DNA of 64,000 nt, from assembly GCA_964528395.1 (NCBI GenBank), contig CAZGTC010000004.1, positions 26,840 to 90,839 on the forward strand, given 5' to 3'. Positions within the stretch are counted from its first letter, which is position 1. Each line of letters begins with the position of its first letter. Shown here in pieces: positions 40,856-62,925 of the stretch. The notes beneath the pieces were generated by a model that searched no databases, was not told the origin of the DNA, and saw only the letters and a program-made list of their open reading frames with translations. This stretch comes from an uncultured bacterium (GTDB taxonomy: Bacteria; Margulisbacteria; WOR-1; CAZGTC01). The position numbers and the translations under genes were made by a program.

Positions 40856-40880
40856 CGATATATATATGAGAGGGAAATTT
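40856..40880 (+). promoter_or_regulatory. Locus motif instance 3: CGATATATATATGAGAGGGAAATTT immediately before ATG 40881 of the 2168-aa gene.
   Basis: Same architecture as instances 2 and 5. The divergent intergenic region 40744-40880 carries one copy for each direction. Confidence 0.55.
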
Positions 40881-43800
40881 ATGGCAACGAATAGAATGGC
40901 AGTTTCACCCATTAGATTTTCAAACCGGTCTTCTCTGGCCGTGGAATTTACCCGTTGTTTAAAAGATTTTTCTACCCTTGAACAAAAAAGAAATTTTATT
41001 GCCTGTATGGCCAGTTACGGCGTAATCAAAGAAAAATACGCCCCCCAACTTGTGGAAAGCGCCTCCCCAAGCGCAGTTGAACGCACGCATCTTTCTATGA
41101 TGCTTACCCAGGAAAGATTAGATAGCGCAATGGATATCTGGGGAAAAATATCTGCGGAAAATCCTAGCCCATTAAGCGCAGCCACTTCTCCTTCAACACT
41201 AAAAAGCAAAATCCTAAATATTATCTGGGACATCCGGGATGGGCTTTTGCCTTTGCTGTATTCTAAAAGAGATATCATCAGTGCCAAGCATCGTTCCTTG
41301 CTAACCCTTACCCTTATCCGACAGGCTGCCAAAGCCTACTCCGGATTAAGTGACCTGGCAGAATCTGCAGAGATCAACTGGTCTTCTGACGGGAATTTTG
41401 CCAATCCGCGCGAAGCACAGCTGGTCCACCAAGCCCTGCTTGAAAACCAAAAAGACCTGGCCCAAAAAATGTCTCAAGATTCTTTGGCAGTTATCAAATA
41501 TCTTGTTGAAAAAGGCCATTACATTAACCAAAGAAGGATTTCCCCGAAAGAAAGGGATCTTTATGTTCGCATTTCAGAAACTTTAAGAAAAATAAGCTCT
41601 GGCCAGGAATCTGCAGAAGCGTTAGCCGGAGAAATTAACGGGCTAATTGAAGCATATGAAAAAACCTTGGTCTTGAGTTTTTATGCTGCGGTCAGCGATC
41701 GCCTCCGCCCACAAAAAAAAGGGCTGACAAAAATAACCAACAGCTTAAGGGAAATAGCAAGGGATGCCCAGGCAGTCGTACAAGCACAAAAAAATCTAGA
41801 AGAAGCACGAAAAATAAAAGATGAGAACTTCAATCCCGAAACTAATAAAGATTTCGAAAATAAAAAAACCCTTCTCGAAGGTGCGCAGCAAGAGTTTGCT
41901 GACGCAATTAGAGAATCGATCCTGCATATCAATGACCTGCTCACCTCAAACGAAGATAAAAATTTCCTTCTAAAAATAATCGCTGGAAGCGCAATCTTTT
42001 TTTCTATTATTTTTCTGTTCTACCGCTGGTATATGGGAATTGCAACTAACGCAGGAACTGGCCTCTTAAAAACTGCTAGCCTTTCTTTGGTTGTTGCGGA
42101 AACTTTTTATAATGGTTTAGCCATTATCTACCAACTAGGGGTCATCCGCAGCAGTGCCCATGCCAATGGAGAAGGCTATCTTCCTCTTATGCGCAAAGGA
42201 TTGGACCCGGATAAAGATAAAAGACCCCCTTATGCTTTTGTCTTGACCATGGTAGAAGAATCTGTGGGAGCTATTTTTGAGAACATTCGCAGCCATACTC
42301 GCTCGGCTTGGGAATATGGGAAAAAATGCCATGTTTTGGTCTGCGATATGTCCTCCCTCCTGTTTAATAAGATTGGGGCATTGGCTGCTACAACCCTCTC
42401 CCAAAAAATGACTGCCCGTAAATTAATCGTTAAATCTGTGGCCATTTCCAAGGGGATAAGTTCCGCCAAAGCAGAAGAGCTTTCTTCGGTCATAGCCTCA
42501 CAATTTACCGAAGTAGACGACAAAGAATGCCGCTTCTGGTGCATTGCCCGTGTGGCTGAAATTGGCCGAAAATTTTATCTTCCTGAAGCCCGAGTAAAAG
42601 AATTAGGGAAAAAGCTCGCGAAATTATTCGAACAGCGCAACCAGGATAAAAGTCCCTTAGACCATCTGGAAGTTCCTGTAACTTTAAAATGGATAACCGA
42701 CCAGCTCATTGCTATGGGGGGACAGGGAGAAAAAATCCCGCTAATCGCTGAATTGATTGAAAAAGAACTTCATTCCCTGGTAAGACGCTCTAGTATTTCG
42801 CGCGTTTTTCATTTGGTTTTTTGCGGAAAAAATCTTTCTTTAGCAGAAAGAAAAAATTTGGAAAACAATCTCTGCCTTGAATTCAAGATTACCCCCAACC
42901 AAGCCCAACTTTTAACTGGCGAAATCATGGAAAATGTTGCACAAATTGAAAAGATCGCATCTGAAGCAGTTGGAGAGCAGGATTTCTTTTCATACCCATC
43001 TGCCCTTAGGCTTTATAATGGGTTAAGGGCTGTCATGGGACAGTTTATGATCAATGATAAACGCACTGCCCTTATCTCTGAAAGCCTTTTTGAAAAAATT
43101 CAAAAGATCGTTCAGAATGAACTCTACATGGGCAAAGAAGCTACCCGTTTATCCTTGGGTCAGGGCCCTCAAGTCTGGAAAAATTCTAACGAAATAGGAA
43201 CTGCCATTGCCCAAGGCATTGATAAGCTAAGAAATTATTCTTTAATGATCGAGGACCAAATAAAAACCATTCCTAATCCTTCTTTCAAAGATATTGAAAA
43301 CGCCCGTGAAAAAGCTTGGGAAGAATATAGTCGAAAAGTGAAAAACACGGTTTTTAGAATAGGAAAAAAACACGGCTTAACTACTAAAGAAAATGAAAAA
43401 ATCGCCAAGGCTATCTTGGAAAATTTTGAAGAAAACAAAAAAGTTCGCGACCTTGCCAGCCATGAATTTGCCAACCAAGTCATAAAATTTGCCCGGGCAA
43501 TTGTACAAAACAACCAAAAAATTTCGGATGAAGAATTATTAAATGACCTGCTAACTAACCTAAGGATCAAACCAACCGGAGATCAAAAAGGCGGAGTAGG
43601 CTTGGCAGTAAGCTTGCTTTTAAAAGATATGCAAGTTGCTGCAACCGAAGCGCAAAAAAAGTTTGCCACCCAAGCTTTTGACGCAACCTTGGATCCTGAA
43701 AAAGATCGCCAAGAATTGATCAATAAATTACAGGGTAAAGATAAAGACGGCAAACCTATCCCAAAAACCGAATTACCCGAAGGGTTTTTCCCTTTTTCTC

Positions 43801-46800
43801 AAGAAAGAGCCACAGAATTTGTAGATGCTTATATAAAAATGTATAAACGCCAAGTCGGCTTGCTAAAAGAATTGGTCCCTAGCCTTCGGAGCCTTGTTAT
43901 GGGCGGACCAGAAGATTCTGTCGCTGGTATTGAGGGGGGATTGATTTCTCCCATCCAGGCCAAACGCACAGATGGCGGGAATATTATGGTTGGAGAAACT
44001 CTTATAGATTTAGAAGAAATAAAAAAAGATATTGGGGAAAGAATCCGTAAAGTTGATGTTGACTACCGTGGAGGAGCCAAGGCTGGAGTTATCTGCTCTG
44101 CTATTCTTGGAGGCACGATCCCACAATATATTGGGGAACAACAACGCTGGACACTCCATCAAATGATTGAAGAAAGAATCTTTAACCGCCGCCGCGTTCC
44201 TCAACAGATTATTACTAGAATTGATACTCAAATTTCTGGTCAAAGAGGTGTATTGCCACGTTCCCTGGATGAAAAATTATGCGATGCGGATTTTATTGCC
44301 ACAATCATTGTTAATGCCTTGGAACAAGGCAAAAAAACCGATGAAATTCTTGATCTGCTCATCAATGAAAAATGGAAGCTGGGCAAAGATATTGCTCCCA
44401 GCCTGCTGCTTAATCTAAGAGAAATAATTGCTGAAATCAATTGGAATCTTGTTTTTGGCCACTTGATCAATCGCATAGGACAAGAAACATCTGGAGAAAA
44501 AAGGCAACGTCTTGTCAGCAATATTCCCGAATTAGTAGAAGCGGTAGCAAAAAATCGCGGCTTATCCAAAAAAGAAAAAACCCTTATGGCAAAATGGGGA
44601 GAAAAAATTAAAGCTAACATAAATCAGGGACTATTTGTAATTGCTGGCAATGGGGACAACTATTATCTTAGGTTGCATGAAAACGCTGCGCGCAATAATC
44701 GCGTTGAAGAGGCTCTTTTTGAGCATTACCACGAGACCCTCCGCAGCTATTACCAAAACTTTATTTTTGGGTCTCCTACTGCAGAAAATGATATTTATGT
44801 ACAAGCCCATAACAGCTATATAAAAAAGTATGATATTCAAGGGGATGAAAGTTGCAGCGCCAAAAGTTTGGTTAATATAATCATAGAATTAACCCGCGCA
44901 GGAAAAGGTGCTGATACTATTCTTGAGACAGTTCAAGACCAATGGCAGGCTCAAAACAACAAAGAACGTCAAGCTGGATTGAAAAAAGTTGTCCTAGAAG
45001 TACGAAAACGCATTGTCCTGGGAGAACTCCTTCCTTCAATAATAGCTAGCCCTCAAAGCGAAGAAGGCTTTGTAATTAACCTTAATGCCCTCAAAGAGCT
45101 CTATGGTATTTCTGACCCGGAATTAACAATATTAAAACCAGAAGCAAACAAAATTCAAGAACTAATCAAAGATATTTTTACTTCTGCCTCCATAGGGAGC
45201 CTAAAAACAGAAATTGACCCCCATAATAATCGATTAAGAATTACTCTTGCAGATAAAGAAAATAGCGTGGCAGTTGCCCGGCATCGCCAAATAACAAAAG
45301 AATTAGAATTTTATCAGGCCCATATTCTATCTCCAAAACAACCAACTGCCGAGCAGATCGCCCAAGAGCTTATTATTCGCGGCCGCCTTCCGCTTACTAC
45401 CTATAGGCGCGAGGCCTTTGCATCCGAAATCCAAAAGACCGCTCCTCTTTTAGAAACTGCTTATAAAGCCGTAGAACCGCAGGTCCAAGAAATCAAAAAA
45501 AAGAAAGAAGCCGAAGGCTTATCTACAGATGAAGCCTTAAGGCAAACCACCTTAGAAGCTCTTGACCTAATAAAAGCGCAGATGGAAAACCTAGTTAAAT
45601 CTTCGGGCATGAAAAATTATTTGAACGAAAATATTCCCGAAGCTTCTACCCTGAAATATACCGGCTTTCACTGCGATGACGCAGATTATCGCGCCCATCG
45701 TACCGCAGCCACGGATCAGGCTCCTTACTTGCAAGAAAGAAAAGGCCTTGTCATGACCGGCCAAAGGCAATTCGGAAGAGACCGCGGAAAACCCATGGCT
45801 GACGCCTTTCAAAGCGGAGGCAACGCTTACTGGGGATTTACCAATATCAGTGCTTCACTTTTGGGAATTACTCCTTCTTGGGGATCTTGTGTTTCTTACT
45901 CTTCCAGATCTTATCGCCACAGCGCTTTTTGGATCGGAGCCATTCCTTACGAAGGCACAGTAGCTAAATATTTTGGTTATACTGGGAAATTCCAGCTTAA
46001 AAAGCTCTTAAATATTACCTCTGATTATTTATATGAACTATATATCAATTCCTCTTTTTATAAAGAGAGAGAGATGGTCTGGCCTTTGGTTATGGGGCGC
46101 TTAGCCAAAAAAATTGCCGGGGCCGGCGCTTTTTGCTTTGATTTAGCTTATGCTTTTTCTTTTCTTATTGCGCGGGATAGCTTGAATTATCTGTCTTCTC
46201 ACGGTTTTATGCCCGGGTGGCTGCCAGACAGCATAACCAATATTATTGAACGCCCGATTGACAAGAAAAAGCTTTTGGAAAAAAGCCCAGCCTCTGGGCC
46301 AATGGAGCTTTTTGCGATTCAAGACTGCACAACCGAATCTGAAGATATTGCTTCAGGAATCCACTTTTTTAGGGAGATCCGCTTTGCCACCGAATTAGCT
46401 AATCCTTGGTGGGAAAGATGGTTAACCAGCTTAACCAGAGCTCCAGAAGGCTTATGGAATGCCCTTTTTATTGAAGGAATCGGGTCTTTAGGGGCCCATT
46501 CAGATGGTATCAATAGTGCTAATGTTACTTTTTATGCACGTTGGGCTCGCGGCAATGAAGCCATTATTTGGGATATATTATCCACCCCCATGGGATTTTC
46601 CAGAAAACTTCATTTTGCGGCACTTTCATTATTTTGGAATACCGGCTTGTTCAGGCCAATGTTGATCCTTTCTCCTATGGCTTTTATGGGATTGGGCATT
46701 TCTACGGTTTTAATGGGGGCTAATCCTTTGGGCTTCTTATCTCTTTTAGTTCTTTGTTTTGGATTTAACATGACTGCTTTCTTATACTCTATGCGCAAAC

Positions 46801-47372
46801 GCGGATTTTTTAGATGGGACAACATGAAAGAAACCTTGGCTTGCATGTATTTAGATTTTGGCGGATTAAACCGCATGCTCAAATCTTTTTATCAAGGCAC
46901 GATCTGGGGGGAAAGGCCGCCCTTTGAACCTTCTCCTAAAGAAAGTGTAGTTATTGAAAAAGTCCCGCTACGCAAGCTCTGGATGGAATATGGCCTGCTG
47001 GCTGGTAATGCCACTGCCCTAGGCTATACCATGCTTTATGGTTTTAGCCCGCAAATTAAACAAGCTGTAGCCCTGCTTTCGCAACAAGCTGCGGATTATA
47101 TACCGCTTATGGGAGGAACCCCAGAAATGCTGCTTGCTGGAGTTTGGACTGCTTTTCATGGGGTATTGATCGGCACTGCCCTGAAAAAATTTAATAAAGG
47201 GGTGTATACCGAAAGGCCTTATGTGGGAACCCTAAAGGCGATCTGGAAAGATTTATCCCCTGGGCCAAATACGCATATAAATAAAGGCACCAACTATGAT
47301 AATAATCTTCTCCTTCTCAAAGAAGAAGGCAATGGAGGGCTAACCTACGGCTATTTAGCTATGCCTAATTAG
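40881..47372 (+). CDS. Giant membrane protein (~2163 aa) with a central TM hairpin and a C-terminal polytopic membrane domain.
   Basis: Uninterrupted ORF. Hydrophobic segments at aa ~370-420 and multiple near the C-terminus (LILSPMAFMGLGISTVLMGANPLGFLSLLVLCFGF...). Start set to the ATG at 40881, which aligns with the conserved motif/RBS; the track start 40866 lies inside the motif. Confidence 0.5.
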   Translation: MATNRMAVSPIRFSNRSSLAVEFTRCLKDFSTLEQKRNFIACMASYGVIKEKYAPQLVESASPSAVERTHLSMMLTQERLDSAMDIWGKISAENPSPLSAATSPSTLKSKILNIIWDIRDGLLPLLYSKRDIISAKHRSLLTLTLIRQAAKAYSGLSDLAESAEINWSSDGNFANPREAQLVHQALLENQKDLAQKMSQDSLAVIKYLVEKGHYINQRRISPKERDLYVRISETLRKISSGQESAEALAGEINGLIEAYEKTLVLSFYAAVSDRLRPQKKGLTKITNSLREIARDAQAVVQAQKNLEEARKIKDENFNPETNKDFENKKTLLEGAQQEFADAIRESILHINDLLTSNEDKNFLLKIIAGSAIFFSIIFLFYRWYMGIATNAGTGLLKTASLSLVVAETFYNGLAIIYQLGVIRSSAHANGEGYLPLMRKGLDPDKDKRPPYAFVLTMVEESVGAIFENIRSHTRSAWEYGKKCHVLVCDMSSLLFNKIGALAATTLSQKMTARKLIVKSVAISKGISSAKAEELSSVIASQFTEVDDKECRFWCIARVAEIGRKFYLPEARVKELGKKLAKLFEQRNQDKSPLDHLEVPVTLKWITDQLIAMGGQGEKIPLIAELIEKELHSLVRRSSISRVFHLVFCGKNLSLAERKNLENNLCLEFKITPNQAQLLTGEIMENVAQIEKIASEAVGEQDFFSYPSALRLYNGLRAVMGQFMINDKRTALISESLFEKIQKIVQNELYMGKEATRLSLGQGPQVWKNSNEIGTAIAQGIDKLRNYSLMIEDQIKTIPNPSFKDIENAREKAWEEYSRKVKNTVFRIGKKHGLTTKENEKIAKAILENFEENKKVRDLASHEFANQVIKFARAIVQNNQKISDEELLNDLLTNLRIKPTGDQKGGVGLAVSLLLKDMQVAATEAQKKFATQAFDATLDPEKDRQELINKLQGKDKDGKPIPKTELPEGFFPFSQERATEFVDAYIKMYKRQVGLLKELVPSLRSLVMGGPEDSVAGIEGGLISPIQAKRTDGGNIMVGETLIDLEEIKKDIGERIRKVDVDYRGGAKAGVICSAILGGTIPQYIGEQQRWTLHQMIEERIFNRRRVPQQIITRIDTQISGQRGVLPRSLDEKLCDADFIATIIVNALEQGKKTDEILDLLINEKWKLGKDIAPSLLLNLREIIAEINWNLVFGHLINRIGQETSGEKRQRLVSNIPELVEAVAKNRGLSKKEKTLMAKWGEKIKANINQGLFVIAGNGDNYYLRLHENAARNNRVEEALFEHYHETLRSYYQNFIFGSPTAENDIYVQAHNSYIKKYDIQGDESCSAKSLVNIIIELTRAGKGADTILETVQDQWQAQNNKERQAGLKKVVLEVRKRIVLGELLPSIIASPQSEEGFVINLNALKELYGISDPELTILKPEANKIQELIKDIFTSASIGSLKTEIDPHNNRLRITLADKENSVAVARHRQITKELEFYQAHILSPKQPTAEQIAQELIIRGRLPLTTYRREAFASEIQKTAPLLETAYKAVEPQVQEIKKKKEAEGLSTDEALRQTTLEALDLIKAQMENLVKSSGMKNYLNENIPEASTLKYTGFHCDDADYRAHRTAATDQAPYLQERKGLVMTGQRQFGRDRGKPMADAFQSGGNAYWGFTNISASLLGITPSWGSCVSYSSRSYRHSAFWIGAIPYEGTVAKYFGYTGKFQLKKLLNITSDYLYELYINSSFYKEREMVWPLVMGRLAKKIAGAGAFCFDLAYAFSFLIARDSLNYLSSHGFMPGWLPDSITNIIERPIDKKKLLEKSPASGPMELFAIQDCTTESEDIASGIHFFREIRFATELANPWWERWLTSLTRAPEGLWNALFIEGIGSLGAHSDGINSANVTFYARWARGNEAIIWDILSTPMGFSRKLHFAALSLFWNTGLFRPMLILSPMAFMGLGISTVLMGANPLGFLSLLVLCFGFNMTAFLYSMRKRGFFRWDNMKETLACMYLDFGGLNRMLKSFYQGTIWGERPPFEPSPKESVVIEKVPLRKLWMEYGLLAGNATALGYTMLYGFSPQIKQAVALLSQQAADYIPLMGGTPEMLLAGVWTAFHGVLIGTALKKFNKGVYTERPYVGTLKAIWKDLSPGPNTHINKGTNYDNNLLLLKEEGNGGLTYGYLAMPN

Positions 47373-47385
47373 GTTAGAAAAATTT

Positions 47386-50300
47386 ATGGGAGTTTTAACA
47401 AGAATATTTAATTATTTTAGAAAACCAGCTATTCAACGGCCCGCGGCTCCTCCACCTCCGGTCAATGCTTCTAGCTGGAATCCAACCATGTCGCGCCGGG
47501 CTTTTTTGGCTGGATCAGCAACTGTTGTGGGTTTGGGCTTAACTGCTTATGGAGGAAAAAGGATTTCAAACTGGCTCGGTTCTCCCCATCCTCAACCAAT
47601 AGAACCTATGTCGTCATCCCCTTTAAGCCAGAGCCAGCTTTCTCTCATTAAAACCTGGTGGAAAACTCATGTGCAAACTGTTCCTGTAAAGGGACAAAAT
47701 AATCCTATTTCTTTTGTCATACAAGAAACAGATAAAAATACAGGCGGACTCAAAGTTGTTTCTGAAGGCATTCCTTGGGGATTAGCCTCTGCTCGACACT
47801 TAAATAGCCAAGATAGATTTGACCAGGTTTTGCGTGGCCTAAGACTGATGATGAGAGACGGGTTACCTTCTTGGAATAATCTTCTGAAAAAAGAACCAGC
47901 CCAAAATAGTTTTTCCTTTGAAACCGTTGATTCCAATCCTGCCATGGACGCAGACCTGCAAATCGTAGCCGAGTTAATTCAAGCCGCACGCCTGCAAGAT
48001 AAAAAGATTTGGGGAAATGGAGAATTTGACTATGCCAAAATCGCCCAGCATATGCTGAATATGCTTTATGATAGCTATGTTTCTTATGACGGGGCTTTTG
48101 CTAGCCTTGCCCCCAACCCTCACGAAAAAGGCGGAGCCCAAGGGTATGTCAAAAATTTAAGCTATATTTCTATTGCTATCCTAGAAGTAATTCGCGATTT
48201 TGATGCCAATACCTCGCACCAATGGAATGACATAATTAATTTTGAACAAATTAGCCGAAATAAAATTATCTCTGCCAAAGAATATCATCAAGGCGAAACT
48301 GCTGCGGTTAATGCTCCTATCACCCGCTTGCCAGATTGGGTACGTTTAGGAGTAGAACAAAAATATGATAATGGGAGCTATTCTAATGAATATAAAATTT
48401 TTATTGATGCAAAACGTTCCAGCAATTTTGGCTATGAAGCGATCCGTTGTTTATGGCTGATTGCCCAAGACGGGCTATATGCAAGGGATCCGGAAATCCA
48501 AAAACAAAACCAAGAACTAGCCAAATTTCTCATTGGCCAAATATTAGCGCTGGCCAAATCGCAAAATAAACCCCCAGAAGAATTTATCGCTGAAATTGAA
48601 GTTGGCTCTGAAAAAAATAAAGAACCAAAAACTCTTTATGCTGGCTACGCGGCTTTGGCTTATGCCGCTAGTTTTTTGCCGCAAAAAGACCAAGCCGCGG
48701 ATTATGCCGCACTTTCTAAAAATTTAGCCCAAAAAGCCCAAGAAGGGGGAACTTTCCACGGGCGCTATTATCAAGATAGTTTAATTTTGTTCTCCTCTCT
48801 TATGCTTAAACAAGCCTTTCATTGGCAGCCGCAACAGCCTTATGTTAATGGGGAAAGCAAGGACTCGCAAAATATTTTGCGTAAATATTGGCCTTATCCA
48901 TTTTTCCATCTTAAGTTTACTTATTACCTAACTGCCCATCAAAGGGCTTTGCTTGGATTAGCCAATGCCCGGGCCGCGGTTTATAACTCTTATGCCTGGG
49001 CTGGCAACTGGAGAAGAAGCCGGGTGACCAACCATTTCCGCAATCGCATTACTTATGGACAACAGCTCGCACTCTTTGGCATGGTAGAGGGCGCCATAGA
49101 ACAGTTTACCTATATTTTAAAACACGCAGACCCTGGCAGAAACTTAAGAGAAATTCGGGAAGCTGCTTATGGCTTAGAAGGCAGCTTGCGCAGGGGCGGA
49201 ATCCCGGCTTTTAAAGCTGTGCGCATATACGAACAAATTATTGAAGAAAGAAGCCAAAACAAACGTTCTTCTTTGGCTTATTTATACGTGGGCTTAGCTC
49301 AAGCCTATTTAGAAACTTATAGTCAAAAATTTCTGTTTCTAGCCCTAGCTAATGCAAGAATTGCTAGGAACCTAAGCAATGCACCCTACGATAATGAAGC
49401 TTATGTAAAAGCCTGTTTCTTATTCGCTGTAGCCCATCAGCGTAAAGGCGAACATCTTCTCAACAACATAGGAAAAGAAGTTTCTATAGAACGAGTTAAG
49501 ACTTTTATTGATGCAAACAAAATTATCGCAGAATTTGATCAAGCCCGCCAAGCCCTGATAAAGGCTTTGGAAATAATCAACACTGTTTTTACAGAACAAA
49601 ACAAACTTTCTTTGTTGGGCTATTTTGATCATTATCTTTCCATTGATGCGGATTTGTATAAAGACCTTCGAAGATGCGGTTCTTTTAGGGCTGCGTTGTT
49701 CTTTCAAATCGCAGAACTAGACAAACAAAAAGCAGATGCTTTTTCTCAAATTGTTGGGCTTACCGATCAACAAAAAATCGATCAGAAAAATGCTTATAAA
49801 AGCGCGCGTGAGTATTATTGCAAAGCTCTGGAAGATAAAGATATTACTCCTAATTTATGCCTTAGCTCAATTAGTAAGATCATTGATACTTACCGTGAAG
49901 AAGCGGATTATGCCATTAAAAATAGCCACGGCATACCAAAAGGCCGGCCCCTTACAGAACCTGCACACCTGCGTGAGTTAAACGCGCATCCTGCTTTTAG
50001 AGAAGCTCAAAGACTCATGACTTTTGCCTTAACGAGCTTTCAAAATCCTCCGGCCAAAAAACCAGAAAAAATAGACAGGGACACCCCGTGGATTTCACCA
50101 GAAGAACAAGCCATTACCATTGGAACCTGCGTTATTAAAGACGGGACTCCCCAACCCAAATGGTATGACCAGCTCTTACGCGAAACAAACCTACAAGATA
50201 AAAAACGCGCTTATGAATTAAGGTTAGCCGAGCTTACACTAAGAAATACGCTTCTTGGCATTGTTGCTGAATCCGCTCAACCACAAGAAGCCATGAGAAT

Positions 50301-51357
50301 AACCTTGAACGAAGTAAATAAAATTATTCGGCTTTCTCCTTTGGCAAGGGTTCGATCACATTATGAAAGACTTGCTTTTTATTTAGGCCGCGGACAAATT
50401 TTAAGGGTAAAAAAAGAGCTTGAAAGCATCTTAACGATTGCAACTATCCTGGAAGCTGGGCTCAATTCCCTACCCGCTCAAATTTTTGATGAAAAAACCG
50501 AGGACTTCTTAAAAACCTTAAGTTTTACCAGTCGCGCATTTTTGGCCACAGGGAATGCAATCCTCCCAGAACTAAAAAAACATTTAGCCCATTTAGGCCT
50601 AACCGGAATTAGTGATCTTCCAGATGAAGAAGTAAAGCCAGCAGCGATTAAGTTATTGTTGAAAAAAATGCACCAATTAAAAGTCGCTGTTCCTAATGCG
50701 CGCGTCCGAACCCTATTAGATAAAACAATAAGTTTGCTTAATGAGGCGAGCAAAAACCCTGAAGGTTTTGAGCTTATTGCCATTGCCTCTGAACTAGCGG
50801 TAGAAGAAAATGTTATTTTAAAACATTACAAAAATAAAACCGCACAAGAAATCGCGCTAGAAGCAGTTGAGCTTAAAAAAGCCAAAGGGCTTCTTGCTTC
50901 CCTAGAAAAGGAATTTCTTTCTCTAGAAAAAACCTTGCAAGGCTTACAGTCTAAGGTTGCTGATCTAGAAGCTCGAGGAGAAATCCCCTATACTGCAGAT
51001 TGGTTCGAAAGGATCCTGGGAGTTTATATTTCAACCTCCTGGTCTATTTATAAAAGTGAGCCTACAATTGCTATTGCTACCATGTTAGAGGTTTTAAACC
51101 AAGACCATGTCCCAATCAAATCTTCCGAGAAAACTGCCCGCACCCTGATAAATTTTATGCGCGACAAAGAAGTCCGCGGATTTATGAACATCCTTATGCA
51201 ATCACCCTATTACCAGCTCTTGGCCTTGTCAACTGTTGCTCAAATGCTTTTTTATTCTGGTTCAGAAACAGAGGCAAAAGAAATTTACGATAAGATGAAA
51301 GCCCTTGATCCAAACAATGCACAAACACAAAAAATTAAGGCCCTTATAGAGAAATAA
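47386..51357 (+). CDS. Giant helical-repeat (TPR-like) protein (1323 aa) with a putative twin-arginine (Tat) signal.
   Basis: MSRRAFLAGSATVVGLGLTAYGG matches the S-R-R-x-F-L consensus followed by an h-region. The rest is predominantly alpha-helical repeat sequence. Confidence 0.5.
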   Translation: MGVLTRIFNYFRKPAIQRPAAPPPPVNASSWNPTMSRRAFLAGSATVVGLGLTAYGGKRISNWLGSPHPQPIEPMSSSPLSQSQLSLIKTWWKTHVQTVPVKGQNNPISFVIQETDKNTGGLKVVSEGIPWGLASARHLNSQDRFDQVLRGLRLMMRDGLPSWNNLLKKEPAQNSFSFETVDSNPAMDADLQIVAELIQAARLQDKKIWGNGEFDYAKIAQHMLNMLYDSYVSYDGAFASLAPNPHEKGGAQGYVKNLSYISIAILEVIRDFDANTSHQWNDIINFEQISRNKIISAKEYHQGETAAVNAPITRLPDWVRLGVEQKYDNGSYSNEYKIFIDAKRSSNFGYEAIRCLWLIAQDGLYARDPEIQKQNQELAKFLIGQILALAKSQNKPPEEFIAEIEVGSEKNKEPKTLYAGYAALAYAASFLPQKDQAADYAALSKNLAQKAQEGGTFHGRYYQDSLILFSSLMLKQAFHWQPQQPYVNGESKDSQNILRKYWPYPFFHLKFTYYLTAHQRALLGLANARAAVYNSYAWAGNWRRSRVTNHFRNRITYGQQLALFGMVEGAIEQFTYILKHADPGRNLREIREAAYGLEGSLRRGGIPAFKAVRIYEQIIEERSQNKRSSLAYLYVGLAQAYLETYSQKFLFLALANARIARNLSNAPYDNEAYVKACFLFAVAHQRKGEHLLNNIGKEVSIERVKTFIDANKIIAEFDQARQALIKALEIINTVFTEQNKLSLLGYFDHYLSIDADLYKDLRRCGSFRAALFFQIAELDKQKADAFSQIVGLTDQQKIDQKNAYKSAREYYCKALEDKDITPNLCLSSISKIIDTYREEADYAIKNSHGIPKGRPLTEPAHLRELNAHPAFREAQRLMTFALTSFQNPPAKKPEKIDRDTPWISPEEQAITIGTCVIKDGTPQPKWYDQLLRETNLQDKKRAYELRLAELTLRNTLLGIVAESAQPQEAMRITLNEVNKIIRLSPLARVRSHYERLAFYLGRGQILRVKKELESILTIATILEAGLNSLPAQIFDEKTEDFLKTLSFTSRAFLATGNAILPELKKHLAHLGLTGISDLPDEEVKPAAIKLLLKKMHQLKVAVPNARVRTLLDKTISLLNEASKNPEGFELIAIASELAVEENVILKHYKNKTAQEIALEAVELKKAKGLLASLEKEFLSLEKTLQGLQSKVADLEARGEIPYTADWFERILGVYISTSWSIYKSEPTIAIATMLEVLNQDHVPIKSSEKTARTLINFMRDKEVRGFMNILMQSPYYQLLALSTVAQMLFYSGSETEAKEIYDKMKALDPNNAQTQKIKALIEK

Positions 51358-51381
51358 GTGCAAGTTATAGAGATACCGTAT

Positions 51382-51404
51382 CGAATATATATATACTTAA
51401 GGAG
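51382..51404 (+). promoter_or_regulatory. Locus motif instance 4: CGAATATATATATACTTAAGGAG upstream of the 1881-aa gene.
   Basis: TATATATAT core followed by an AAGGAG RBS, 11 nt before ATG 51416. Confidence 0.5.
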
Positions 51405-51415
51405 ATGAAAAGTTT

Positions 51416-54400
51416 ATGCCAGTACCAGCACCAATAACCGGAAGTAGTTCTTCCCATGATATTTGTAAAAAAGTCTATCTTGGGAATGTATACGAAGAAA
51501 TAGGAAATATTGATTCTCGCGCTTTTAGAAGCTCTGCAACCGACGTGGACAATCAATATAATACGCAACAAAACATTGCAGGCATTGAACTCCAAATATC
51601 AAAATTAAATTGTAAAAGAAACCTAAATGATATTGCCTACAAAAAAAATGCTTTTCTTGCTTTTATGGTGCTTATCCAGTTGCTCGATCGCTTGGCAAAT
51701 CTAACCACAGATACAAAAGAAAAAAAAGCCCTGTACGCAAAATGCGCGGCTTTGTCCGCGGTTTTCTGTCGCAAAAGCATTCCAGCCGGCATTGTGGCAG
51801 ATCAAGCCACCCAAAAGAACCTAATTCCTCTTCTTCGCTTGTTAATTAATAAGGGGTATAAAGAACCAGAAAACAAAGTTCGAGAAGAAATAGAGTTTAT
51901 TTATAAACAAGCGCTTTCATATCTTGGTTCTGATAATGAAATGATCAAGTCCGGAGAAAACTGGTTTGCAAAAAGAAGTGGGGCTTCAAAAACTGCTCCC
52001 AAGCTTAAAAGATATACCTATGATTACACCGTAGGATACCGTACACGTTGGATGGAAATTCTAGCCCAAAAACCTGCTCAAGCGCATCTACTGCTCACAA
52101 AAGACCCTGCCCAGTATAAGCAAGTCCTATTGGATTACCTTGTTTATTTAAAGAGAGTAGCTACTCCTTCCCCCACAATAGCACAAAGATTAAACGAGCT
52201 TTATACGCGGATGGTTTCTGCCATAATAAACGCATACACAAACACTACAAGTACAACTTATGCCGCAAAAAAGAAAGAAATTTTAGCCATTCTTGGCAAA
52301 GACATAAAAAATCGAACAGCAGAGGAAAAAACCACTCTTCTACATATATTTAACCCGGGGCTTATTGGAGGATTCAAATTAAAATATATTGAAGATCAAG
52401 ATGGATTAACCCAATATGACGCAAAAGTCAATCGAGGATGGGTATTGGCAAAATCGCGCAGCGAAGAAGACCTAAACTTAGCCGTAAAACTAGCTATTGA
52501 AAATTTAAATACCGGTCATATTGAAAGAAAAACGCATGATTTTATAAAGATCCTTATCGAAGCTTTAAATAATCTCATCTTAATAAAAGGCAAAACCAGC
52601 CCCAAGTCTCTAGAATTAAGACAAATTTTAGCCTTGGTTCTAAAGCTCTCGGCAAATTCTATTCCCAACTTACCCGCCTGGGTAACTATGCTAGCAAATG
52701 TAGCCAAAAAAAATGGATCAAACAATTATTATATTATGGTTGCTCAAACCCGCCTTGACCTTAACCGTATTCCGGCTTATTTTTCTGATTTAGACCCTGA
52801 CCGCAAGCCAGATGAAATCGTCAAGCAGGGCCTCTGGATTGCCGGCCTTTTATCTTCTATTGCTGATACGCTTAAAAAAGCCGGGAGAGAAAAGGATATT
52901 TATGACCCTTTCTTTTTTGCCGCAGTTAGGGAATATCTCAATTGCCAAATTCCCCTTATCCGGGAAATACAAAAATATCCGCAAAAAGCATCTTTATACT
53001 TAAGCTTGGCTTCGGCCTACCATGCCATGGGAGACCAGCACGAAAAAGATGGGGACAAAGAAACTGCCCGCTTATGCTGGAAAAGAGCCAAAGCCATTTG
53101 CCAGGCTCTTTGGGATGGAATACAAATATCTTCTTCTTTATTTACAGCCCAAGGAGATATTTTACCAGATATTTCTGCGCTTATGCGAGGAATAATCATC
53201 CATCGGAACGCCTTATTAAAATCTTTAAAAAATGGTAATTCCTCAAGCAGCGCCCCGGGAAAAGTCCCGGGAAAAATTATTTACGAATTCTTTCATAGTT
53301 TTGCCGAAGCCATCCGAAAAGTTGATCTAGTCTACGACAGAGAAAAATCTAAAAAGAAAAACTTAAAGTTTATTGATACGTCTTTTCAGACGGCTAAAGG
53401 GTTTTATTCGCTAGCTAAAAAATCGATAGATCCAGATGTTATTTCTCGAGCTAACGCTGGCGAAAAAGAAGCTTTTCGCGCCCGTATTCGCGCTTATATT
53501 TTAGCGGGAAAATTTGAAGAAGCCATAAAATTATATCCTCCAGAAATTATCAAAACCTTTACCCACCTATCAGCCGGAGGGACCCCTAGTTTTGAAAACC
53601 TTACTCTGGCCTTGGGAAATATTACAGAACTCGCCTGGGCCTATGCTGAAAAAGGCCAGTACGACAGCCGTTATCTAGGAAAAGAACATCAAAAAACCAG
53701 TTATGTAAACTTCTTAAAATCTGCGGCTATTTATCATGCCCTCTTATATGGCAAACAATTATTACCGAAGATCAACGATCAATCTTTTAAAGAGATTATT
53801 AAATTAATTATAAAATTCAAAGCTCATTTTGATAATCCTCTTTTGCTTCTAACTCTAAAAATCTCAAAAGAAGAACTTTATATGCGATTAGGCGATTTAA
53901 CCCGCGATGCTGCCCAGAAAACCCTTGCTTTTAATATGGCTAATAAATTATATGTTTTTGCAGGTAAACAATACCAAGCTGCTTTAGCCCTGCTCCAAAC
54001 TAGTAATGGAAATGGCCTTTCAAAAGTAAAAATCGCGGCCGCCCAAACCGGCTTGGCAAAAACTTATATTTTAAGGTCGGAATTATCCCTTAAATTAGGG
54101 CAACCCAAAATAGCAAAAAAATATTTAGCATTTGCCAGGCATTTCGCTAAAAAGGGCCTTTTAGCTCTTACCCATAAAGATATAGACACTCGAAAAGAAG
54201 GAAAGCTTATCTTGGATGCTTTTTCTACCTATAGCTGGGCACTCGGAAAAAGCGGCGGGTTCGCAGAAAAACAAGGGGATATTTCAGGCGCGCACAAATA
54301 TTTTAAACTTGCACGCACCTTAAATAATGCTTTTGTCCATAATCTTAAAAGTCAGAGCCTCCCCAAAGAAACTAAAGTTTTAGCACAAATTGCTTCTACC

Positions 54401-57061
54401 CTCAAAGAACAGCTTCCTTTTAGGCAAACCCTTATCCACGATCAGCCGCAGGAATATTTTTCTCTAGACTTGGCCAAGCTTTATAAAGCTTCCAGTAAAG
54501 GTTACAAAAACCCGCAGGAAAAAATAAGGGCTCTAAGCCGAGCGATTTATATATTTGAAACTATTATTTCACAATCCAAAGACATCCTTTTTGCTTATAA
54601 AATAAAAGAAGCACAAGTAGAATTGGCCGAAGCCTTAACTCTGCGGGGCAAATACTATGAAGATACCCGGCGCGATGATCTAGCAGAAAAAGACTATCAA
54701 ACTGCCCTGCAAATTTGCCTTGCATCAATTAAAGACCAAAAACCTATCAAAACATTGGCCCAATCCACGGTTTATCTAAAAGGCATATCGGCTTTAATTT
54801 GGGCACTTAAGCACTATATGGACCTAAAAAAATATACTGATGTTGCTTATTCTGACATTGGCAGCCTTTTGCCTATCGCGCTTTTTAACTGTTTAACTAC
54901 TGGCAATATTTCTCTTAGCCCAGAATTACGTACATTTATTATTGCCAAACTAAACATAGCTGAAGCAGAGATAAACAGTCTTTTTGGTTTTTTAAAAACT
55001 TATGCTCAAACCTTTGCCCAAAATAAGGCCCGCATCCTAGAAGCTGCGGATTTAACTGAAAACAATCTAAAACTCGGGTTTATTGGCTTGCTGATTTCCG
55101 CAAAAAAATATTCGGATGCAGCCAACATGTATAAAGACTATGTCATTCCACAATTAAAAGAATTAGCTAAAATCCCTCCGGCAGAGTTTGAGATTATTCT
55201 TGAGATCACTTCCGCCCTGGGGGATATCTATTGCTATAAATTTGAAGATTTCAAAAAAGCCAAAGAATATTATCTTAAGACTTTAGAAATTTTTACTTCT
55301 TATAAAAAGAAATATACTGATCTACCAGAAGAAATAAAACTTGTAGAACAAAAAGCTATTCTTGGCCTGGCCAAAATAGATATAGAAAATAACAATTACA
55401 AAGCCGCAGAAAAAAAATATTGGAAGGGCATTAATCACTCTAATTTTAACCAAACATCAGGCAGCCTTCCCTTGAAAGCACAAGAGGTCCTTATTCGGGC
55501 TTATTTAGGTTTAGGCGGCTTATATTTACACCTTAAGCCAAATCATACCAAAGCCCTAGAAATGTATAAAAAAGCGCGTCAGTTGATCTCTTTGCTTTCG
55601 ATCAAAAAGGCCTACCGCTATTTGGTCCAGGCTTTTCTTGAAAGTGGAGATGTTTATAGGCTATTGAACCAGCCAAAGCAAGCCATTAACTTTTATCAAG
55701 ATGGGCTAAAACTATTAACCGGGCAAGGCATCAATGAAGAAGAAGATATTGAATTAGAAACCCTTATTAGGGCTGCACTGTCCCAAGCTTTGGCACAAGA
55801 AGGAAAAGTTGATTTAGCCTTGCAAGAAAACAAAAAAGCCAGAGAGCTTATACAAAAACTCCTAAGCAGACCGTATGGAAAAAAATATCAAAAGACTTTC
55901 CGTCGTATTATTGGGGATACCTCAAATATTTGGGATGAAGCTTCGCGCTGTCCCGGTTCGTTTAGAATTGGCGGGGCTTTTAGCTATAATCAGAGCAATC
56001 GCCTTTCGATCTTGGGAAATGCCTTTCAGGGCCAAGCAGGGCCATCTGGTGAAGGCTTTATCTCTTATCAAATCTCTAGAAGATTTAGCCTTGCCCTAAA
56101 TTATCAGCCGGATATTCCTCAAGCTTTTAATATCTTTAATCCTGGTTCCAGTGCCGGCTCTCCACAAAATCTAGCAAGAATGGAAAGCAACTACAACCAT
56201 TCCATAGGATTATCCTTAAACTACAAATTAGAAACCCCTTCTTATAACCTAAGCTTGAATCCTTTTATCCAAAGCCATATATTTTCTTATAGAATTTATG
56301 AGCATAGTTTTTCACAGGATTATCGCTTTGTTGATCAGCTTCCTGGCTATCCGTTGGAACATCCTAATACCCTGCTTAGCTTTAGCTTGGGCGGGATTAT
56401 TAGTGGGGATTGGAAGCTTAAGCTTCCTAATCAATTTTTGTTATTGATCGGGGGACAAGCCAAAATCGCTGGATCTTTTGTTTCTGGGCCAGGCATAGGC
56501 AATGAAAGTTATTTAATCTCCCAACTAGAAAATGCTAAAACTAAAAATCCTCAAGCAACTAAAGAAGCTTTGCCCGGGCCAGCCTATGCCACTGCTAGCC
56601 GATTAAAAAATACTCATCTTTTTACCTGGAACCTAAATCCCGGAGTTAATCTGGTTTTCCCAGCTTGGGTTGGTCCTATGGGAATTTGGAAAAACTCCAG
56701 CCTAAGACTAGGCTTTTCTTTTGGAGAAGACCCGATTGCCGCTACGCTTAATAACTTTTATCCTATGCGCAATTTACAAAAAGATGCTTCTGGTAAAACT
56801 TGGTTCAAAGACTTGGATAGCTTTCGTATTTCTGGAACAATTTCTGCCAGAACCGACATAACTTTTGGACTGGATTCAAGAATGCGCATTCCAATTGAAT
56901 TTTTGCTTGAAGGCGGAAATTATCTTTATCTGCAGATAACCACAGGTTTTAAATATTATGGGGATATGTGGAATATTTTCCCCTTTATAAGGTATGAACA
57001 GTTTGAGGGGCCGACCGATAGATCTCAGCGTTTTAAAATTGGGGTTGAATTCGGCTTTTAA
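51416..57061 (+). CDS. Giant TPR-rich protein (1881 aa) with a C-terminal beta-barrel-like domain ending in an OMP-type beta-signal.
   Basis: AAGGAG RBS. Long helical-repeat N-terminal 1450 aa. Last ~400 aa are rich in alternating hydrophobic/Gly/Asn/Ser beta-strands. C-terminus is KIGVEFGF, an alternating hydrophobic pattern with terminal Phe. Confidence 0.5.
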   Translation: MPVPAPITGSSSSHDICKKVYLGNVYEEIGNIDSRAFRSSATDVDNQYNTQQNIAGIELQISKLNCKRNLNDIAYKKNAFLAFMVLIQLLDRLANLTTDTKEKKALYAKCAALSAVFCRKSIPAGIVADQATQKNLIPLLRLLINKGYKEPENKVREEIEFIYKQALSYLGSDNEMIKSGENWFAKRSGASKTAPKLKRYTYDYTVGYRTRWMEILAQKPAQAHLLLTKDPAQYKQVLLDYLVYLKRVATPSPTIAQRLNELYTRMVSAIINAYTNTTSTTYAAKKKEILAILGKDIKNRTAEEKTTLLHIFNPGLIGGFKLKYIEDQDGLTQYDAKVNRGWVLAKSRSEEDLNLAVKLAIENLNTGHIERKTHDFIKILIEALNNLILIKGKTSPKSLELRQILALVLKLSANSIPNLPAWVTMLANVAKKNGSNNYYIMVAQTRLDLNRIPAYFSDLDPDRKPDEIVKQGLWIAGLLSSIADTLKKAGREKDIYDPFFFAAVREYLNCQIPLIREIQKYPQKASLYLSLASAYHAMGDQHEKDGDKETARLCWKRAKAICQALWDGIQISSSLFTAQGDILPDISALMRGIIIHRNALLKSLKNGNSSSSAPGKVPGKIIYEFFHSFAEAIRKVDLVYDREKSKKKNLKFIDTSFQTAKGFYSLAKKSIDPDVISRANAGEKEAFRARIRAYILAGKFEEAIKLYPPEIIKTFTHLSAGGTPSFENLTLALGNITELAWAYAEKGQYDSRYLGKEHQKTSYVNFLKSAAIYHALLYGKQLLPKINDQSFKEIIKLIIKFKAHFDNPLLLLTLKISKEELYMRLGDLTRDAAQKTLAFNMANKLYVFAGKQYQAALALLQTSNGNGLSKVKIAAAQTGLAKTYILRSELSLKLGQPKIAKKYLAFARHFAKKGLLALTHKDIDTRKEGKLILDAFSTYSWALGKSGGFAEKQGDISGAHKYFKLARTLNNAFVHNLKSQSLPKETKVLAQIASTLKEQLPFRQTLIHDQPQEYFSLDLAKLYKASSKGYKNPQEKIRALSRAIYIFETIISQSKDILFAYKIKEAQVELAEALTLRGKYYEDTRRDDLAEKDYQTALQICLASIKDQKPIKTLAQSTVYLKGISALIWALKHYMDLKKYTDVAYSDIGSLLPIALFNCLTTGNISLSPELRTFIIAKLNIAEAEINSLFGFLKTYAQTFAQNKARILEAADLTENNLKLGFIGLLISAKKYSDAANMYKDYVIPQLKELAKIPPAEFEIILEITSALGDIYCYKFEDFKKAKEYYLKTLEIFTSYKKKYTDLPEEIKLVEQKAILGLAKIDIENNNYKAAEKKYWKGINHSNFNQTSGSLPLKAQEVLIRAYLGLGGLYLHLKPNHTKALEMYKKARQLISLLSIKKAYRYLVQAFLESGDVYRLLNQPKQAINFYQDGLKLLTGQGINEEEDIELETLIRAALSQALAQEGKVDLALQENKKARELIQKLLSRPYGKKYQKTFRRIIGDTSNIWDEASRCPGSFRIGGAFSYNQSNRLSILGNAFQGQAGPSGEGFISYQISRRFSLALNYQPDIPQAFNIFNPGSSAGSPQNLARMESNYNHSIGLSLNYKLETPSYNLSLNPFIQSHIFSYRIYEHSFSQDYRFVDQLPGYPLEHPNTLLSFSLGGIISGDWKLKLPNQFLLLIGGQAKIAGSFVSGPGIGNESYLISQLENAKTKNPQATKEALPGPAYATASRLKNTHLFTWNLNPGVNLVFPAWVGPMGIWKNSSLRLGFSFGEDPIAATLNNFYPMRNLQKDASGKTWFKDLDSFRISGTISARTDITFGLDSRMRIPIEFLLEGGNYLYLQITTGFKYYGDMWNIFPFIRYEQFEGPTDRSQRFKIGVEFGF

Positions 57062-61022: not shown

Positions 61023-61047
61023 ACATTATCCCTCTATATATATATCG
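61023..61047 (-). promoter_or_regulatory. Locus motif instance 5 (minus strand): CGATATATATATAGAGGGATAATGT immediately before the ATG of the GH8-like gene.
   Basis: Reverse complement of 61023-61047. Almost identical to instance 3. Confidence 0.55.
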
Positions 61048-61120
61048 TAATTTTTGGGGTAAAATTTCACCTTTTACACAGAATTTATCCGCGGACAGGG
61101 GTAAAATTTTGCTTGTTTTT

Positions 61121-62908: not shown

Positions 62909-62925
62909 ATCGATCGCCCCTTTCT

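Follow-up and report, generated by a model that had tools for sequence, protein, structure and literature searches.

Here we describe a locus of giant genes in a stretch of 64,000 nucleotides (nt) from an uncultured bacterium of the WOR-1 lineage of Margulisbacteria (contig CAZGTC010000004.1 of assembly GCA_964528395.1); this whole 64-kb stretch is called the window, and all positions are counted from its first letter. The locus is built around three consecutive open reading frames (ORFs) on the + strand. ORF1 (40866..47372, 2168 aa) encodes a protein that resembles BcsA-family processive synthase/translocases of glycosyltransferase family GT2, with a split GT-A domain and a 365-aa N-terminal extension; ORF2 (47386..51357, 1323 aa) combines an N-terminal twin-arginine (RR)/hydrophobic segment, a GH8 domain and some 840 aa of helical repeats; and ORF3 (51416..57061, 1881 aa) consists of a helical/TPR region followed by a C-terminal beta-rich domain. 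The genes are separated by gaps of only 13 nt (ORF1-ORF2) and 58 nt (ORF2-ORF3). ORF3 is preceded by AAGGAG, and the likelier start of ORF1 is the ATG at 40881 (giving 2163 aa), which is preceded by GAGAGGG. Over the 26.5 kb between 30881 and 57372, a Logan assembly made separately from run SRR8863440 has 0 mismatches to this sequence; NCBI and ENA assemblies likewise contain the ORF1 protein, and orthologues from other samples match ORF1 beginning at about residue 4-40 and ending at about residue 2120-2160. Since a second assembly is identical and orthologues align end to end, misassembly or a frameshift does not explain the size of these ORFs, and an assembly chimera as its source was rejected. 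Thus, the three consecutive giant + strand frames of a preliminary description of this DNA, which had called for a check on chimerism, are real, and chimerism is unlikely.

The same description had seen no obvious enzymatic motifs in these proteins, and in this it was wrong: ORF1 carries the motifs of a GT2 synthase, and residues 111-481 of ORF2 form a GH8 domain. The family of ORF1 is easily overlooked. Because its GT-A core is split by two insertions of ~500 residues, the protein is missed by standard domain annotation, its sole NCBIfam match being to CelA (16 bits, aa 1885-1996), and a word-indexed protein search returned ORF1 itself and one homologue only. Recovering the family took an exhaustive HMMER search, for which the C-terminal domain of ORF1 served as query; the family comprises ~25 cluster representatives among 1.84 billion proteins, most of them 1400-2500 aa long. 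When family profiles were searched against the PDB, only BcsA chains were retrieved, with 4hg6, 4p00 and 5ej1 at 3.7e-6, 3e-7 and 1.1e-8, depending on the profile, and E. coli BcsA at 4e-2 to 6e-4. These matches consist of three collinear pieces, namely a transmembrane (TM) hairpin, in which 'YRWY...AETF' is paired with BcsA 'YWFWR...VETF', the DxD strand, and the RW helix together with the TM helices that follow it. By homology, therefore, ORF1 belongs with the BcsA-type GT2 synthases as a distant member, and the homology extends to the channel helices and to most of the catalytic motifs.

BcsA proteins are defined by two aspartates that coordinate uridine diphosphate (UDP), the TED base and the Q(Q/R)xRW motif (PMC8892547), and the elements of ORF1 can be followed along the protein in the BcsA order. 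The TM hairpin ('FYRWY...VVAETFYN', 41961..42140, aa 366-425), identified by hydropathy, hmmsearch and hhalign, corresponds to the TM3/TM4 hairpin 'YIWWRY...LFAETY' that precedes the GT domain of BcsA; the preliminary description had placed it in the middle of the protein, and while the hairpin exists (aa 367-425), it lies only 17% of the way along the protein, close to the N-terminus. It is followed by the beta1/beta2 part of the GT-A domain (42222..42365, aa 453-500), where the family alignment and hhalign relate 'AFVLTMVEES' to BcsA 'VDIFVPTYNED' and 'VLVCD494MS' to 'ILDDGG'. Here the first insertion begins (42366..44012, aa 501-1049), which is helical, has no BcsA counterpart and contains a weak internal repeat (hhalign self-comparison, 57%). 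The KAG segment (YRGGAKAGVICSAILGG, 44013..44150, aa 1050-1095), equivalent to BcsA 'HAKAGNINNAL', consequently lies ~550 residues past beta2; it reads 'GGAKAGVI..AI' in the window and 'GKAGAINNAIHG' in distant members, the K and the G being kept throughout the family. A second helical insertion (44151..45617, aa 1096-1584) was shown by hhalign self-comparison to carry a helical module of ~185 aa twice in tandem, at about aa 1105-1294 and 1290-1490 (96.7%, E 4e-10; 44181-45335 of the window). The DxD region (45618..45965, aa 1585-1700), whose strand stands ~490 residues past the KAG segment, includes D1605-A-D1607, with 'DADY' pairing with BcsA 'FDADH', as well as 'GQRQFGR' and 'SWGSCV' (cf. 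BcsA FFCGSC). Finally, the C-terminal catalytic and channel part (46278..47369, aa 1805-2168) aligns with BcsA 341-685 and carries 'TTESED1827', the RW motif, TM helices, a gating-loop-like motif ('PF2020EPSPK2025E', family form PFxxSPK), two more TM helices and a tail. T-E-S-E-D1827 is near-invariant and aligned to the VTED of BcsA, and R1892-W1893-ARGN aligns to QRxRWARG. The C-terminal TM helices noted previously were confirmed, with hydrophobic helices at 1750-1768, 1932-1950, 1955-1973 and 2088-2106 plus weaker ones. In the alignment of 20 family sequences, with pairwise identities of 20-37%, D1605, D1607, Q1635 and G1673 are invariant, and G-x-R-Q-x-G-R, S-W-G, E1824-S-E-D1827, R1892-W-x-R-G-N, F2020, P2024 and K2025 are near-invariant.

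Splicing made the relationship much clearer. Unspliced, the C-terminal part of ORF1 gave 34.7% against E. coli BcsA in hhalign (E 4e-4, 188 columns), whereas with both insertions spliced out the values rose to 95-96.9% (E 3.5e-8 to 1.6e-10) over 454 columns covering E. coli BcsA 199-685. The two N-terminal pieces alone (S1+S2) reached 76.8% on BcsA 199-349, and the C-terminal pieces alone 91% on BcsA 344-685. As a control, segments of the same length were cut out of the insertions themselves, and none of these eight decoy splices improved or lengthened the alignment with BcsA. In these alignments residues ~370-425 of ORF1 are paired with E. coli BcsA 199-260 and residues 1890-2110 with 489-685, in agreement with the 4hg6 hmmsearch. 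The spliced profile is also selective: BcsB, BcsE, PgaB and PhoH gave 0.1-0.2% in hhalign (E. coli BcsB, 0.1%), and PgaC gave 2.4% with no alignment beyond the beta1-beta2 region.

Two other observations concern the less conserved parts of ORF1. The region between the GSC and TED motifs is variable: the window protein has one hydrophobic helix there (46113-46169, aa 1750-1768), and its closest orthologues, P0002 and P0003, have a hydrophobic stretch of ~40 aa, possibly a re-entrant segment or an extra TM hairpin inside the GT domain. Furthermore, shortly before the C-terminus (window ~47300-47369) nearly all family members keep an (S/K/D)-E-E-G motif, and this tail may be a docking peptide, since giant TPR proteins are encoded next door.

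The GH8 domain of ORF2 (47716..48828, aa 111-481), of the BcsZ/CelA-like type, is recognised by Pfam (PF01270, Glyco_hydro_8; 33.8 bits, cutoff 24), and its best NCBIfam match is BcsZ (E 1e-12), at 47.7 bits against an equivalog cutoff of 299. In the PDB the best match is C. thermocellum CelA (1cem, E 4e-5), Pseudomonas BcsZ being matched as well. The GH8 motifs S-E127-G, D-A-D188, IPDW and G-x-D-A-x-R are kept in 11 orthologues, with E127, the catalytic acid, and D188 invariant in 9-11 of them; the position of the catalytic base is occupied by E350 (G-Y-E350-A-I-R) in the window protein and by Asp in the other orthologues. Judged by these conserved catalytic residues, ORF2 is a GH8 enzyme, one that does not reach the BcsZ equivalog score and departs from the single-domain layout of ~40 kDa with a Sec signal by its 840-aa helical extension.

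Near its N-terminus, ORF2 carries the segment SRRAFLAGSATVVGLGLTAYGG (47491..47556, aa 36-57), in which S36-R-R-A-F-L-A, a match to the S/T-R-R-x-F-L-K pattern of the twin-arginine translocation (Tat) pathway, is followed by the mildly hydrophobic GSATVVGLGLTAYGG, which stays under the TM threshold. No clear AxA signal-peptidase site follows, so that a signal anchor is as possible as a Tat signal. A start at M35, which would give the short n-region of textbook Tat signals, was considered and rejected: M35 lacks a Shine-Dalgarno sequence, and the preceding 35 aa are conserved as protein in the related loci L002, L003 and L011 (related loci are numbered with the prefix L), and therefore the longer start, with its long n-region, is real. 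The twin-arginine signal claimed in the preliminary description survives in part: SRRAFL and the hydrophobic stretch exist, but the RR pair occurs in only 3/11 orthologues (the window and its closest relatives, L002 and L011), a KR pair with a hydrophobic segment replaces it in L003 and L009, and six more distant orthologues have no hydrophobic N-terminal segment. Among the sequences compared, the RR motif is thus a clade-specific feature. No Tat family was matched among the scanned ORFs of the window, several smaller ORFs not having been scanned.

In ORF3, the helical/TPR region (51416..55915, aa 1-1500) contains no hydrophobic segment and shows Pfam TPR matches (TPR_12, 42.8 bits vs a cutoff of 30.1; TPR_2, 30.1 vs 27) and profile matches to consensus TPR proteins. 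Of the ~1400 aa of TPR-like repeats described before, those at aa 1071-1101 and 1360-1481 are supported by Pfam, the rest being deduced only from helical composition. The C-terminal beta-rich amphipathic domain (55916..57058, aa 1501-1881) has the Gly/Asn/Ser/Thr/Tyr-rich composition of outer-membrane proteins over ~380 aa and contains ~15 alternating amphipathic segments, several of hairpin length; the C-terminal barrels of BcsC/PgaA/PelB-type TPR-porin exporters have 16-18 strands. We measured the i/i+2 alternation of hydrophobic residues against composition-preserving shuffles: the C-terminus of ORF3 gave a z of 4.4, and six complete orthologues (the window, L003, L004, L009, L011 and L017; 1446-1881 aa, 17-27% pairwise identity) gave z 2.1-4.4. 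As controls, the E. coli BcsC barrel gave z 2.4 and a PorV-like barrel encoded in the window z 2.0, while TPR, GH8 and adenylosuccinate synthetase (AdSS) sequences ranged from -1.1 to 1.2. All six orthologues have TPR-type repeats followed by a region of ~380 aa with the same composition, and in 5/6 the protein ends in an alternating strand with a terminal Phe and hydrophobic residues at -3, -5 and -7 (GIGLEF, LGLGGFF, FGLIFRF, LNLQASF, GVEFGF); the L004 protein ends in KIYFE, with the Phe at -2. In the window this beta-signal is RFKIGVEFGF, at 57029-57058, so that the beta region ending in KIGVEFGF, reported earlier, is confirmed both by its alternation and by its conserved terminal Phe. From these features, the C-terminus of ORF3 is probably an outer-membrane barrel. 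A word-indexed search with the ORF3 C-terminus returned no match at all, missing even ORF3, and one with the ORF3 family alignment returned itself only.

The order synthase-GH8-TPR is kept in about 15 loci (L002-L012, L015, L017 and L018), found in four sources (JGI, NCBI, ENA and Logan) and belonging to three phyla, and an ORF2-type gene follows the synthase gene in every related locus; synteny of the giant genes, another point on which the preliminary description had wanted a check, is therefore established. A contig scan with patterns derived from two close sequences found nothing, and a broader alignment succeeded. Named genomes carrying the cluster are those of candidate division WOR-1 (Saganbacteria), Candidatus Saganbacteria, Candidatus Margulisiibacteriota and Candidatus Omnitrophota, and the cluster is also present in unassigned metagenomes. 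The closest named relative is a candidate division WOR-1 (Saganbacteria) genome, with 44% identity in the C-terminal domain of ORF1. For Saganbacteria, Margulisbacteria and Omnitrophota, searches of one paper library retrieved no description of such a cluster or family. L008 (2804-9801), the most divergent of the loci, has a GH94 phosphorylase gene and a 527-aa Pfam NTP_transferase gene in front of its synthase gene, without a visible AdSS-like gene; the GH94 and NTP_transferase genes support a glucan/cellodextrin context. The third (TPR) gene is a single frame in L012 (8497-14058) and is split into 898 aa + 956 aa in the near-identical L015 (15526-21087), and the difference may come from sequencing error, from a frameshift or from a gene that is truly split.

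Three genes upstream of ORF1 are co-conserved with the cluster. The most distal encodes a pyrophosphorylase-like protein of 1212 aa (31910..35548, + strand), whose C-terminal half looks to be of the sugar-1-phosphate nucleotidyltransferase type with a left-handed beta-helix and carries the motifs GAGSRS...KG (G-x-G-S/T-R) and FVEKP (F-V-E-K-P); its matches in the PDB, to GlmU, glucose-1-phosphate thymidylyltransferase and UGPase, are weak (0.008-0.075), and its N-terminal half of ~550 aa lies outside the nucleotidyltransferase-like part. The next gene encodes a protein of 1227 aa (35548..39231, + strand) which, on the basis of profiles, motifs and synteny, is a fusion of nucleoside diphosphate kinase (NDK)-like, guanylate-kinase-like and HD parts. 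Its family profile matches guanylate kinase (E. coli Gmk, 5.7e-9) and NDK (6e-6) in the PDB, and it contains AKPDAV and NxxHCS (NDK), GTSGSGKT (P-loop) and LHDIGK (HD), its Pfam and NCBIfam matches being weak. This combination hints at a guanine donor nucleotide, or at local recycling of nucleoside diphosphates. The third gene, on the - strand (39250..40743), encodes a 497-aa paralogue of the AdSS family (Pfam 1e-70; NCBIfam purA 215 bits vs a cutoff of 402). An AdSS-like gene adjoins the synthase gene, on either strand, in at least 8 loci: the window, L004 (8509-9990), L005 (8135-9802), L006/7 (L006 8303-9829), L010, L011 (4712-6202), L015 and L018 (3738-5408). The protein keeps the GDxGKG P-loop and the equivalents of His41 and Gln224, and has replaced both the aspartate-binding TTGRRRR loop and the K of TKLD, from which we propose that it is probably a neofunctionalised GTP-dependent ligase.

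Downstream, the stop codons of ORF3 (+) and of a convergent gene for a 722-aa protein (57062..59230, - strand) abut at 57061/57062 with zero intergenic bases, leaving no room for a shared terminator hairpin between them. The 722-aa protein, which the preliminary description credited with a beta region similar to that of ORF3, is indeed strongly beta-amphipathic (aa 180-490, z 6.2), but homology of this region to the ORF3 C-terminus was rejected (BLAST E 0.57, hhalign 0.4%). It matches no Pfam or NCBIfam family and has no counterpart in the related loci within the available flanks, and its membership in the conserved system is doubtful. It shares its convergent operon with the genes at 59232-63963 (- strand). 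These include one for a 596-aa GH8-like paralogue without signal peptide (59232..61022, - strand; PDB CelA E 0.006, tblastn to the GH8 domains of ORF2 orthologues 1e-12), one for a 595-aa PorV/PorQ-like barrel with three SLH domains and a classical signal peptide, which we take to be an OmpM-style outer-membrane tether typical of Terrabacteria diderms, and one for a CBM11/TIG/FlgD-Ig protein with a weak match to the C-terminal domain of the type IX secretion system; the operon either runs past the end of the window or stops shortly before it. The remaining genes of the window are ordinary chromosomal ones (icd, rnf, miaA, hisD, pgi, ctpA, uvrC, ychF, nadC, cdsA, mnmG, skp, lpxD and one GT4 gene), and scans for tRNAs and Rfam families found zero RNA genes in it.

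Taken together, these data make it likely, in our view, that the three ORFs form the core of a synthase-dependent polysaccharide system that is organised like Bcs but is very divergent and restricted to certain lineages. ORF1 would be the inner-membrane synthase-translocase, with a TM hairpin leading into a cytoplasmic GT2 (GT-A) domain collinear with that of BcsA, in which beta1, the first Asp, KAG, DxD, Q-x-F, GSC, (T/S)ED, RW and PFxxSPK follow one another in the BcsA order, and, after it, four or five TM helices that correspond by homology to those of the BcsA channel. The product would be a beta-linked glycan, in the simplest case a beta-1,4-glucan, polymerised from a nucleotide sugar and threaded through the channel of ORF1 itself. 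The GH8 endoglucanase domain of ORF2, held on a long helical-repeat arm, would act in trimming or release as BcsZ does, and ORF3 would take the role of BcsC, PgaA or PelB, that is, a periplasmic TPR guide joined to an outer-membrane pore. The three upstream genes would probably make and recycle the nucleotide-sugar donor locally. An envelope-spanning assembly, as suggested in the preliminary description, is compatible with this; the idea of motif-less structural giants is not, given the synthase, hydrolase and TPR-beta parts, and the likeness it drew to published 'giant genes' is a loose analogy only.

A number of observations weigh against this reading. The Pfam scan of ORF1, GT2 models included, gave no match, and only 1/20 family members matches a Pfam GT2 model, weakly; in ORF1 there is no contiguous GT-A domain of ~250 aa that GT2 models recognise, the core elements being dispersed over aa 453-500, 1050-1095 and 1585-1900. 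Within this core, beta1/beta2 are degenerate in the window clade (distant family members keep the canonical 'PSFNEP' and 'LDDS'), the position of the first Asp, D494 in the window, is a Pro in the closest orthologue, P0002, and the Q of the RW motif is lost, its position being F1889 in the window and variable across the family. An AlphaFold2 (AF2) model of the C-terminal 729 aa of ORF1, built from 13 sequences, has a pLDDT of 58, weakest over the motif regions, and leaves the split GT-A fold unconfirmed; a Foldseek search with it returned E. coli BcsA (9b8v_E, E 0.025) at the top and plant CesA8 at rank 5, which lends weak support. That the split domain folds and works is something we infer, as we infer product and donor from family membership only. 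Neither PilZ nor BcsB gave a Pfam or NCBIfam match in ORF1 or in any cluster protein. As for ORF3, its beta domain matched none of the Pfam outer-membrane protein families, the PDB, the E. coli BcsC barrel or the PorV-like barrel, with profiles and hhalign, and a single-sequence AF2 run on it gave a pLDDT of 31 and no usable model. A further difficulty is export. Neither ORF3 nor its five orthologues have an N-terminal signal peptide or hydrophobic segment (the lack of a signal peptide, reported earlier for ORF3, is borne out by hydropathy), and ORF3 cannot be extended upstream because ORF2 ends 58 nt before it; the N-terminal hydrophobic segment is likewise absent from 6/11 ORF2 orthologues (L004, L005, L006, L008, L010 and L012), and the PorV-like outer-membrane protein of the same window has a classical signal peptide. 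A Bcs-like system offers no explanation for the way in which ORF3, and in most orthologues also ORF2, would get out of the cytoplasm when it has no signal peptide.

Alternatives were weighed against this reading. If ORF1 is BcsA-like but ORF2 and ORF3 are cytoplasmic scaffolds or regulators, docked by their helical/TPR arms on the synthase, for instance on its insertions or on its conserved EEG tail, with the GH8 domain working at the cytoplasmic side of the membrane or degrading a glucan inside the cell and with no outer-membrane pore, then the missing signal peptides (in 6/6 ORF3 orthologues), the missing hydrophobic segments of ORF2, the signal peptide of the PorV-like protein, which tells that the organism does use them, the lack of detectable homology between the ORF3 beta domain and BcsC or barrel families, and the unusually elaborate cytoplasmic side of the cluster would all fall into place. 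Against this arrangement stand the alternating strand with terminal Phe, kept in orthologues that are only ~20% identical, the beta-amphipathic statistics, at least as high as those of known barrels, and the export-type RR/hydrophobic segment of ORF2 in the window clade. Moreover, the GH8 enzymes of synthase systems are extracytoplasmic (PMC8892547), and a single orthologous system whose members differ in the side of the membrane on which GH8 lies is unparsimonious; we therefore hold a cytoplasmic location of both proteins to be unlikely. We also consider a more specific version of the Bcs-like system, in which the twice-interrupted GT-A synthase works, its helical modules may serve as built-in scaffolds or regulators that replace BcsB and PilZ, a non-UDP, possibly guanine, sugar donor is made and recycled by the upstream genes, and ORF2 and ORF3 reach the envelope without Sec, for example by Tat hitch-hiking on ORF2. 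Such a system would be of a kind not described before, and that all of these parts hold jointly is rather improbable.

A different possibility is that ORF1 is a catalytically dead descendant of BcsA, retained as a channel or scaffold, in a cluster devoted to the uptake or processing of external beta-glucans and not to synthesis. The degenerate beta1, the variable first Asp and the lost Q of QxxRW in the window clade, together with the more than 1000 aa that interrupt the GT-A core, would fit a dead enzyme, and the two GH8-like genes and the CBM11-like protein nearby, as well as the GH94 phosphorylase adjoining the L008 cluster, would fit such a use. Yet DxD, (S/T)ED, RW, KAG and the F and K of the gating loop are invariant or nearly so in ~20 sequences that share just 20-37% identity, which is the pattern left by purifying selection when an active site is in use, and the co-conserved upstream genes include one for a pyrophosphorylase-like protein as well as nucleotide kinases; a dead ORF1 thus seems to us quite improbable. 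Still further from the data is the reading of the preliminary description itself, that of three non-enzymatic giant proteins forming a protein-only trans-envelope structure (an adhesin, a secretion apparatus or a tether), with ORF2 as an exceptional Tat cargo. It drew on the giant size, the long helical repeats, the RR motif and the beta-signal, but the conserved carbohydrate-active catalytic motifs of ORF1 and ORF2, with their BcsA and GH8 homologies, largely refute it, RR is limited to the closest orthologues, and the 722-aa protein, its 'fourth member', is not conserved with the cluster. We regard it as highly improbable.

If a Bcs-like system is indeed encoded here, a function can be assigned to a family of giant 'hypothetical proteins' so sparsely represented in current protein collections, and the lineages sister to Cyanobacteria, as well as Omnitrophota, would carry a polysaccharide system invisible to annotation based on domains. 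Its split GT-A domain would amount to an experiment of nature in which the tolerance of a processive synthase to insertions is probed, and the finding illustrates that splicing out insertions can rescue the detection of remote homology. That BcsB and PilZ are missing, that signal peptides are missing from the parts presumed to lie in the periplasm and outer membrane, and that guanylate-kinase-, NDK- and AdSS-like companions are present suggests that regulation, export and donor supply are solved differently here.

With the bcsA(B)ZC operons of types I-III, and with the BcsA structures of Rhodobacter sphaeroides and E. coli (4hg6, 4p00, 7lby and 9b8v) as reference, the cluster shares the gene order of synthase, GH8 hydrolase and TPR/beta-domain protein. 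ORF1 has the pre-GT TM hairpin, KAG, DxD, (T/S)ED, RW, gating-loop-like motif and C-terminal TM channel helices of BcsA, ORF2 the GH8 fold motifs of BcsZ, and ORF3 the TPR-then-beta-domain layout of BcsC. In spite of these similarities, the differences are considerable: unlike in BcsA, the GT-A domain of ORF1 is split by two insertions of ~500 aa and preceded by a 365-aa extension, and the Q of QxxRW is lost; no PilZ or BcsB was found in the cluster proteins; unlike BcsZ, a protein of ~40 kDa with a Sec signal, ORF2 has 1323 aa and a Tat-like or anchor N-terminus; unlike BcsC, ORF3 has no signal peptide and no BCSC_C homology; and the cluster adds three genes, for a pyrophosphorylase-like protein, an AdSS-like protein and the NDK-guanylate kinase-HD fusion.

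Other synthase-dependent systems, such as PgaABCD (which makes PNAG), Pel and the alginate system (Alg8/44-AlgK-AlgE), combine a processive synthase in the inner membrane with a hydrolase or modifying protein in the periplasm and with a TPR scaffold coupled to a beta-barrel porin (PMC9384988, PMC8892547). The locus shares this general logic but is set apart from these systems by the ORF1 profile, which gave 2.4% on PgaC vs 96.9% on BcsA, and by its hydrolase, which is of the GH8 and not of the PgaB, PelA or AlgL type. Another parallel is offered by Cyanobacteria, the phylum sister to Saganbacteria and Margulisbacteria. Cyanobacterial cellulose systems combine BcsA and BcsZ homologues with HlyD-like and TolC-like exporters (PMC8892547). 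Although the cluster described here has no HlyD or TolC genes, and its proteins are giant and its GT domain split, it resembles those systems in joining a BcsA-like synthase and a GH8 enzyme to what would be a non-canonical export route.

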